Virus record (IMG/VR): IMGVR_UViG_2778261453_000014 | Reading direction: 5' to 3' (one strand) | DNA length: 7,356 nucleotides | DNA from: a virus | Lineage: Duplodnaviria > Heunggongvirae > Uroviricota > Caudoviricetes | Shown here: in pieces, positions 3,001-6,000 of the stretch | How the letters are laid out: every line of letters begins with the position of its first letter | Numbering within the stretch: the first letter of the stretch is position 1 | Made by a program: the position numbers

Positions 3001-6000
3001 TGTGTCAGCTTTTCCGCAAGGTCTGACGGCGACGCCGCCCTGACAACATCGTAATGTTTAATCGACATCGAATTTCTCCCGTGTACAGGAACAGAGTTAA
3101 AAAGCCGGAACCGGAATCAAATCACAGGATGACCATCTGCCAGTGGCAGGTCATAAAAAAAAGGCTGCGCAATGCGCAGCCAGAACTCACAAGGAAAATG
3201 ATAAAAGGAATAACACTAGTGATGTACGCATGGCGCCTCCCGCTAAGTTCTGCAATGATCAAACAGAACTCGCTACGTGCCCTTAAAACTCGATCATTTA
3301 GCCCCTCCAAGGAGGATTCACCATGCGGTTGATTTTTTAATAAACAGTAAACAAAAAAGTCAAGAATTATTCATTCTGTTCTTTCATCATCGGCCACAGC
3401 AATACCACAATGCCGCAGACCAGAGCGCCATCAGTCAGTACCAACATTATCCTGCTGGTGAAATCCATCATCACCATCACTAAAAGCAGGATCACAACAG
3501 CAAGCAGACACAGTTTATAAAACAATGTTCAGAAAACGCATTCAGCATGCCTAAGGTTCTATTCCTACGAATAGCCAACTTGCAACTTAAAATATTATTT
3601 ATGCAGCCAATTAAATTCTGGTCCTTACAATATCAACCTGAAGATTCTTATCTTGTGCTGATTGATAAATGACAAACCTTTTACTACCTGCATTGAAAGA
3701 AGTAGACAAAACCAGACAATTATCATAACGAGCAAGAACATAATACCAACCATCATTATAATTAATCATTTCATATTCTTTCTTAAACTGTGGTTTGTAA
3801 TATCCTGTCAGAAATGAAAAAAGCCAGAAATATGCCACAAAAGCAATCATCACAATCTCAAAAAAATGTTTTTTTATAAATGGCTTATCATAGAAGCATG
3901 ATACCGATAAAAATCGCCCATAAGATCTTATCGAAATTGTAACCGCCAGCGCAATCGCTGCTGACAGTAGCAAAAGAGGTACCTGAATCTTCTGTCTCAA
4001 TATAGAAAACTCAATAATTGCCGGCACAAACAATAATTCCACAGCAAAATAAAGGCGAAATACATTTAGCTCTTGCATAGAATGTTTTCTTTTCACTGCG
4101 AAAAAGAATACAACACCAATACCCCAACCGATAAGAAATATAGCAATGACGATAACTGCAAAAAATAAACTTCTGGCAACATCATCAACACCTGCACCTA
4201 CAATCCACCATGGGAAGCCGTAGTAAAAAGAAGTACCCCATCCATAGAAATAAGCACTCCCCCATCCAAGGCATCCCATGTAGGCAATAAAAAGTGAAGA
4301 ACTCCTGAGCAGCGCACCATCCTTCATAACCACCCCAATACAAGATGATAACATTGGCTTACAACTCATAACAAAAGCAATTCAATGCCGTCAAGAGATT
4401 ACAGGCTAAAAAAACTCTATTACATAGCAGCCAGCATGTTTACCGTACAAGTACAACTCAGGGCATAAAAAAAACCCACTCGGCAGCGGGTTTATACATT
4501 TTTTACAACATACCAAATTTGCATGAAGTATATGGCTTTTAATCCAGTTTTGCAATATTTTGCTGTAAAAATGCTGCCTTTTGTTTTGAACGTGTTCTCG
4601 TCACAAGCAATAAAGCATCACTATCAAGCTGTAGAAAAATGTGCTTCATTGCAACCCAGCGTTCAGTAAATGTCTCGGACCAGTTTTTTGTTGTCACTCC
4701 CACCAATGATGCCAGTGTCTGGTATTCATAGGCCTCACGCCCTGCAAGTTCGCTCTTCACATCCTGTGCAGCCAGCCAGATTAACGTCTTCAGGCGATCC
4801 AGTGTCTTACCTGCAATTTTTCTGTTACTTAACAAATCTTTAAACTCGCTCCATGCCCATTGCGTTATGGTGACCTGATGCCCCCATCGAACGCTTTCGC
4901 TGTAACACCAAAGCAACCATGCTTTCTGATGTTCATCGAGAGACAAAACCGCGCGGCGCCATGAAGAGGTTGAGAATTCAACCGGGCTGACCAAAGCAAT
5001 GGATGAACCTTTTGCGTACGACTGCTTACCGGAAGTCGGCGTATTATCCAGCGTAATCATCTTGCCAGTTACCACATCCAGAATGCGCGGCTTCTTTCGT
5101 TTGTATGTACCAGTATCAAATTGTGCATGCTCCTGCCAGGCTTCGAGCTGGCCTTTCGTTGCTCCGTTCAAGTCAGCAGTAGCTGCCATAAGTTGCTCAC
5201 GAACATACTGTAAATATTGGGTATTCATGCAGTAAATCCTTTCTATATTTTGGCATAATTCTTCAACATTCGGTAATCGTTCAAAACCGAATCGGGGAAA
5301 CGACATAAGCACAGGAGCCCCCAGCGACAGCGAAGGAGTTCTGATATATAAGACTCAGACATCATTCATTCCCCGGTTCTCCAAAATCTGTTTCACTCAT
5401 CATCCATAACTACCTGTAATTGCCCCCCCTTTTTTTGTAACAGTTCTTATATTGCTATATAGAATAGCCATTACTAATGCATTTAAATTTAATAAAATAA
5501 AAATTATAAAAACATAAAACACCACGCAAACACACTTAATAAAACACCGTTACATTAAAAGATAATAAAAACCACAATAAAAAACGAATAAATCAATTGT
5601 CTCACACAATTATAAAACATCATATTGATTACGCACCTTGTATTACAAACTCATGTATGTAAAATACGCGCACCATTCAAAAAAAAGGAAGACAATAACA
5701 TATGAAAAAAAGTGTCATCGCTGGCGTCTTTATTGCTCTGTCATTTACCACGTGTTCAGCTATCGCGAACAGCCTTGCATTATCATTAGCAAATGATGAT
5801 GCAGGGAAGTTTCAACCAATACTTAATGATATTTATGGCAATAAACATGAAAACAGAGATGATTACTCACAAGGCTTATTTCTGGGATATAGCCACGATA
5901 TCTCAGACTCGAGCCAATTATCTCTCCATATTGCGCAAGATATTTACTCTCCATCAGGCAGTAATAAAAGACACAACACAGCTGTAACTGGAGACAGAGC

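Follow-up and report, generated by a model that had tools for sequence, protein, structure and literature searches.

A probable late-gene regulatory unit of the phage 82/434 type at the 3' end of a Q82-family antiterminator gene

In phage lambda the late promoter pR' is constitutive and lies after gene Q, with a Q-binding element (QBE) inside the promoter and a sigma70-dependent promoter-proximal pause (PMC4914094, PMC5001585). There are three mutually unrelated families of Q protein, of which PF06323 is the Q82 family (PMC9388147). Here we describe the end of a gene Q in a 7,356-nucleotide stretch of viral DNA (hereafter the window; IMG/VR record IMGVR_UViG_2778261453_000014, Caudoviricetes), most of whose genes lie on the minus strand. 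An earlier note on this sequence had proposed a compact late promoter, leader and terminator at this place. Judging by the sequence elements observed and where they lie, by the family to which Q belongs and by the pattern of conservation, we consider that positions 4464-4555 (minus strand) are the late-gene regulatory unit of a lambdoid prophage of the phage 82/434 type, with a probability of about 0.88. Positions within the unit are numbered from +1 at A4520.

The closest described promoter is that of phage 82 (82pR'), whose wild-type transcript starts with AAA. Its pause-inducing element is a -10-like sequence, nearer to TATAAT than that of lambda and accompanied by an extended -10, and it is located immediately upstream of +15-17, where a discriminator-like GCC is followed by an AT-rich segment. 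The paused RNAs end at U+25 and +26. An insertion at +18 places a G at the pause position, which makes +24 a G; counted from the RNA end, position -11 is a G and position -10 is not, and the nucleotide that follows the end is not a G either. The single mutations +16A and +17A each bring the pause half-life down by roughly half (all from PMC5001585).

The gene directly upstream of the unit, on the same strand, is a Q gene of the Q82 type. It spans 4539-5231 (minus) and encodes 230 residues if translation begins at MNTQ, as it does in the phage 82 and RefSeq versions; taken at its longest, the open reading frame (ORF) is 4539-5312. The ORF matches PF06323 (Phage_antiter_Q) with 306 bits and an E-value of 1.7e-91, and, compared from MNTQ onwards, it shares 203 of 229 residues (89%) with phage 82 Q (CAA63332, X92588).

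Read on the minus strand from 4555 to 4464, the unit is TTGCAA AACTGGATTAAAAGCCA TATACT TCATGC AAATTTGGTATGTTGTAAAAAATGTAT AAACCCGCTGCCGAGTGGGTTTTTTTT ATG. The predicted -35 hexamer of pR', TTGCAA (4550-4555, -35 to -30), is a palindrome and is near-invariant among the non-redundant Q82-type loci described below. It is followed by a 17-bp spacer, AAACTGGATTAAAAGCC A (4533-4549, -29 to -13), which contains the final Q codons and the Q stop codon TAA (4541-4539), so that the promoter straddles the end of the gene. The spacer differs from those of 82-type loci at two to three positions, and is the presumed location of the QBE. The -10 hexamer is TATACT (4527-4532, -12 to -7), with TATATT in the relatives. 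In a consensus scan the combination scores 9/12 as a promoter-like site. The earlier note had described these elements accurately. Transcription probably starts at AAA (4518-4520, +1 to +3), since AAAT is invariant in alignment A1 and wild-type 82pR' also starts with AAA (PMC5001585). We place +1 at A4520 because this numbering puts GCC at +15-17 in the relatives and gives them a U at +25, in agreement with the published description.

A putative sigma70-dependent pause element, TG-G-TATGTT (4507-4515), follows, with an extended -10 TG at +6/+7 and a -10-like hexamer at +9 to +14; its core TGrTAT is kept across genera. Next come the discriminator-like triplet GTA (4504-4506, +15 to +17), which is GCC in phage 82-type loci of the same alignment, and a probable pause site TGTA (4495-4498, +23 to +26), which is invariant there. 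RNA 3' ends would be expected at U+25 (4496) and +26 (4495). By sequence, then, the unit has both the pause element at +6 to +14 and the G+24/U+25/A+26 of the pause site. The earlier note had suggested that two -10-like repeats in the leader, TATGTT and TGTATAAA, might induce the pause. The first (4512-4507), with its upstream TG, does occupy the position of the phage 82 pause element. The second was rejected as a pause element: only its TGTA at +23 to +26 is conserved, while the TATAAA part is missing from the long leaders of 82-type loci and from some of the short-leader relatives, and its A residues lie in the terminator stem. As a separate observation, the IMG/VR loci L012 and L019 are a natural variant of the 434 type with TATATT in place of TATGTT at +9 to +14, which is nearer the -10 consensus.

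The leader ends in a predicted tR'-like intrinsic terminator (4464-4493, minus), recognised by scanning, by folding and by the annotation of phage 434 (OL657226.1). The hairpin, AAACCCGCU-GCCG-AGUGGGUUU (4493-4472, +28 to +49), has nine pairs and a loop of four; its G+C core occupies 4490-4475 (+31 to +46) and is followed by a run of T8, or U8 in the RNA (4474-4467, +47 to +54). This bears out the earlier placing of a hairpin and U8 about 30-55 nt downstream of the start. Release of the transcript is expected near +53 to +55, which would give a leader RNA of about 53-55 nt (4466-4520, minus), by analogy the counterpart of lambda 6S RNA or of StxS (PMC7547250). The predicted folding energy of the 55-nt leader is -15.3 kcal/mol. 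This corresponds to z = -3.56, a value in line with the 200 shuffled sequences, not one of which folded equally well. The only Rfam match over the unit, to STnc240, was rejected: it scores 28 bits where the family's gathering score is 55, has an E-value of 0.56 and rests on the terminator. STnc240 is a chromosomal small RNA (sRNA) of Salmonella, located at yeeY-yoeI.

The promoter and terminator matches become convincing when relatives are considered. Loci of the Q82 type were gathered from IMG/VR and from one genome per species (Citrobacter, Klebsiella, Raoultella, Enterobacter, Leclercia, Franconibacter, Superficieibacter, Scandinavium and Pseudescherichia), giving 29 non-redundant loci; the Q proteins of the per-species set are 59-73% identical to that of the window. 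The promoter at the 3' end of Q is homologous to those of the other loci: when anchored on the pause element, nearly all of them, in at least 10 enterobacterial genera, keep an ungapped register that reaches from -35 to about +27, beyond which the similarity collapses. In BLAST comparisons, the homology shared with phages and prophages of the Q82 type passes the Q stop and ends at about +15, the query spans of shared homology being 1-195 in one search and 1-65 in another. Mean column conservation is 0.70 over the final Q codons (-60 to -36), 0.89 in the -35 hexamer, 0.70 in the spacer, 0.88 in the -10 hexamer, 0.86 at +1 to +5, 0.84 at +6 to +14, 0.76 at +15 to +17 and 0.64 at +18 to +27, and falls to 0.44 at +28 to +60 and 0.39 at +61 to +120, all figures being slightly diluted because three false-positive anchors were retained. 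Conservation that is higher in a non-coding block than in the coding sequence beside it, and that has a sharp downstream edge, marks a functional cis-element co-inherited with Q. A 46-nt pattern for the family has one match in the window, without mismatches, and none in 200 shuffles, although its degenerate positions were picked with the window in view and the result is therefore not fully independent.

With +1 at the first A of the AAAT, relatives of the 82 type (for example L056, L003 and L002) read AAATCTGATATTTTGCCAATGTTGTAC, and satisfy all of the published descriptors of 82pR'. In this register the sequence of the window is AAATTTGGTATGTTGTAAAAAATGTAT, which shares all of them except the GCC. 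The comparison with phage 82 that the earlier note had proposed agrees in the AAA start, the extended -10-like element and the U+25 pause (PMC5001585). Besides the family and 89% identity of Q, the window has in common with phage 82 the -35 TTGCAA, the 17-bp spacer with the Q stop, TG-n-TATnnT at +6 to +14, G+15, G+24/U+25/A+26 and a leader that contains an intrinsic terminator. It differs in having TATACT rather than TATATT as -10, TATGTT rather than TATTTT as pause hexamer, and TA rather than CC at +16/+17. The terminator sequence also differs, and the leader lacks about 19 nt, among them the 3' arm of a hairpin seen at +13 to +37 in leaders of the 82 type. Because of the shorter leader, the terminator of the window begins at +28 and not at about +50.

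The phage 82 allele that served as template in vitro, with GCC at +15 to +17 as a component of the elemental pause signal, is thus not the one present here, where the triplet is GTA. In other Q82-type loci this triplet varies (GCC, GTC, TCG or GCT). GCC therefore marks the 82 allele rather than the family, and the window carries an allele of the 434 type.

Most of the related leaders have such a structure: a hairpin and U-run between +24 and +113 were found in 22 of the 29 loci. These terminators fall into two classes whose terminator sequences are unrelated. In the short-leader class (the window and phage 434, L005, L087, L095, L098 and L101) the hairpin begins at about +31, and in the long-leader class at about +46 to +60. 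That unrelated sequences do the same job in the same place argues for selection on function.

An additional hairpin was noted in the long-leader loci (L056, L086, L088, L102 and others of the 82 type), at +13 to +37 of the pR' leader. Its 5' arm contains the GCC of +15-17 (UGCCA...UGGCA), and in other genera the arms change in sequence yet remain complementary (GUCG...CGAC, CUGCC...GGCGGCA). The allele of the window and phage 434 has neither this GCC nor the 3' arm. RNAalifold gave no consensus for the hairpin in 82-type leaders, on account of register shifts between loci.

The unit is widespread. Positions 4380-4700 of the window (321 nt) are 99.7% identical to phage 434 (OL657226.1, 41824-42144), and the similarity extends over 2896-7279 at 99.3%, the sequences being divergent to the left of about 2896. 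The unit is therefore already present in a public phage genome and is partly annotated there: the record describes Q as 'Q82-like' and the hairpin (42034-42059) as a terminator, and annotates neither a late promoter pR' nor a pause element. A search of the literature for the phage 434 genome or its Q gave no relevant paper. Among 5426 complete E. coli genomes, 611 (about 11%) carry the 131-nt unit at 99% identity or more. O157:H7 is one of them, and there the unit belongs to a prophage at about 0.9 Mb. The unit is thus a variant member (434-type, short-leader) of a well-characterised regulatory unit.

The earlier note had likened the unit to the pR'-tR' of lambdoid phages. This is supported by the Q82 family of the adjacent Q, by the homology of the promoter and initial transcribed region to those of Q82-type phages and prophages, and by the agreement with 82pR'; the appropriate model is phage 82, and not lambda or phage 21. 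The region pR'-qut-tR' of lambda, which gives rise to 6S RNA, has the same logic, including a terminator in the leader and Q-dependent read-through. However, lambda Q is from the unrelated family PF03589, whereas the Q of the window matches PF06323 only. In lambda the pause is at +16/+17, with AACGAT at +1 to +6 and GGG at +7-9; the pause element of the window is 9 bp farther downstream. The lambda terminator acts at +193, so that its leader is far longer than the approximately 55 nt predicted here. The combination that characterises the lambda-type pR'/qut, a PF03589 Q and a pause at +16/17, is thus absent. A further likeness is to StxS, the prematurely terminated pR' leader made in lysogens by the Stx prophages of E. 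coli O157 (PMC7547250). StxS has 258 nt before it is processed to 74 nt, and it is an Hfq-binding RNA with demonstrated targets; the leader in the window is a predicted RNA of 55 nt.

On the model of phage 82, we propose that sigma70 holoenzyme would initiate at the constitutive pR' (TTGCAA-17-TATACT) at A4520. Sigma70 would be retained on the early elongation complex and would bind again at the extended -10-like TGgTATGTT (+6 to +14), and the complex would scrunch and pause at U+25/+26. Q, whose own gene reaches into the promoter spacer and stops there, would bind its site in the promoter DNA and load onto the paused complex, making it resistant to terminators. Without Q, transcription would be expected to stop at the hairpin and U8 (+28 to +54), giving the leader of about 55 nt and leaving the downstream moron and the lysis genes silent; with Q, polymerase would read through into them.

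Several points weigh against this assignment. What is said of the start site, of pausing, of Q binding and of termination and read-through is carried over from phage 82 by homology, and the binding of Q to a site in the promoter is assumed. The likeness to 82pR' was judged on verbal descriptors in one paper and not on its literal sequence; a literature search with the window leader and the 82-type leader as literal sequences returned only unrelated papers. The GTA at +15 to +17 may make the pause weaker or place it differently, a weaker pause being possible because +16A and +17A each halve the half-life of the 82pR' pause, but this is a quantitative question and no change of kind. Finally, generic scans show no enrichment over shuffled sequence, since promoter-like sites number 13 in the window, where shuffles have 15.4 +/- 4.4, and terminator-like sites number 10, where shuffles have 6.8 +/- 2.8, so that neither match is significant alone and their significance comes from homology to relatives. 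Since sites of equal quality are as common in shuffles, and the phage 434 record annotates a terminator only and no promoter, it could be argued that the 9/12 promoter match is due to chance, that the hairpin and U8 mark the end of the early (pR/Q) transcript, and that the late promoter is elsewhere. We regard this as very improbable. Across genera and in a fixed register, the non-coding sequence between the Q stop and about +27 equals or exceeds the coding end of Q in conservation; it agrees position by position with the published description of 82pR'; and the scan found no other promoter-like site between Q and the terminator. The alternative TTGCAA to which the earlier note had pointed does exist (at 3580-3585), but lacks both a -10 partner and the surroundings typical of the family.

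A different reading of the same hexamer is that TTGCAA belongs to paQ, a CII-activated promoter directed rightwards and antisense to Q, either instead of pR' or beside it. The plus strand at 4550-4563 reads TTGCAATATTTTGC (TTGC-N6-TTGC), which fits the CII-binding consensus and shares the palindromic TTGCAA with the pR' -35; the phage 434 record labels it as a CII-binding consensus and as the -35 of paQ, and the repeat is present in several E. coli loci of the Q82 type. That annotation is nevertheless pattern-based, the second TTGC lies within the Q coding sequence and may be conserved for coding reasons, and the upstream TTGC loses its register outside Escherichia (Citrobacter and further genera). 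There is no good -10 at a distance like that of pRE, and paQ would leave unexplained the conserved -10, AAA start, pause element and terminator on the other strand. We consider paQ unlikely, although it could coexist with pR'; if it is real, bound CII would overlap and occlude the pR' -35. The leader of about 55 nt might also be a trans-acting small RNA, made constitutively in lysogens in the manner of StxS. In Stx phages the short pR'-tR' transcript is a ligand of Hfq and a regulator of host genes, and this has been proposed to be of general occurrence (PMC7547250); the leader here ends in a stable hairpin with U8, folds better than all 200 shuffles, and has its sequence in 611 of 5426 E. coli genomes. 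On the other hand it matches no Rfam family (STnc240, E-value 0.56, being chromosomal and unrelated), it was not found among the ncRNAs of EDL933 named in PMC5331693, and its unstructured part is nearly filled by the conserved pause element, leaving little free seed sequence. This second role is therefore distinctly unlikely, and we would put somewhat lower still the chance that the leader (4520-4466) accumulates in lysogens and acts as an Hfq-dependent regulator of host or phage targets. Were it true, the short-leader (434-type) allele would be more than a by-product of the switch.

As a late-gene regulatory unit of the 82/434 type, the element would supply the start point and the control logic for the late operon here, in the corresponding region of phage 434 and in the O157:H7 prophage at about 0.9 Mb. 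Both are absent from the database annotation of the phage 434 and O157:H7 records. The 434-type allele, with GTA for GCC and a terminator that abuts the pause site, is also a ready natural variant for studies of sigma70 pausing and of loading by Q82. Beyond these uses, the result confirms textbook biology.

The genes downstream are on the same strand and form a late or lysis operon headed by a moron. They include genes for a 252-residue membrane protein, DUF1737 and DUF1327 proteins, a lysozyme (1453-1986, minus) and Rz (496-963, minus), and the layout of the late genes is the same in phage 434 and O157:H7. The first gene past the terminator (3611-4369, minus) encodes the 252-residue protein, which has multiple membrane passes and no match in Pfam; it is labelled 'putative membrane protein' in phage 434 and hypothetical in O157:H7. 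We take this gene to be a moron that would be under the control of Q.

No clear holin ORF of at least 40 residues was found in the ORF list or with Pfam at 2003-3068, ahead of the lysozyme gene. The C-terminal part of the DUF1737 ORF (2841-3068, minus) weakly matches the holin S of P21. This region is near the point where homology to phage 434 ends (about 2896), and it may represent either a recombination joint or a lysis cassette that is defective. A search of the window for tRNA genes gave none.

On the other side of the unit, a 29-codon N-terminal remnant of a lambda-type Q (6787-6876, minus) follows the gene for the NinI phosphatase. After it come lpxR, encoding an LpxR lipid A deacylase (5702-6661, plus), then ylcG, and then the Q82-type Q with its own promoter. 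The remnant is not associated with the promoter at 4464-4555, and looks like the scar of a replacement of the Q and pR' cassette.

Finally, between the moron and the DUF1737 gene there is a full-length match to Rfam STnc100 (3152-3356, minus). It is below threshold, with 41.4 bits against a gathering score of 47 and an E-value of 1.6e-6, and it has a strong terminator at its end (3181-3163 followed by T8). The STnc100 family has 11 expressed copies in O157:H7 EDL933 (PMC5331693).

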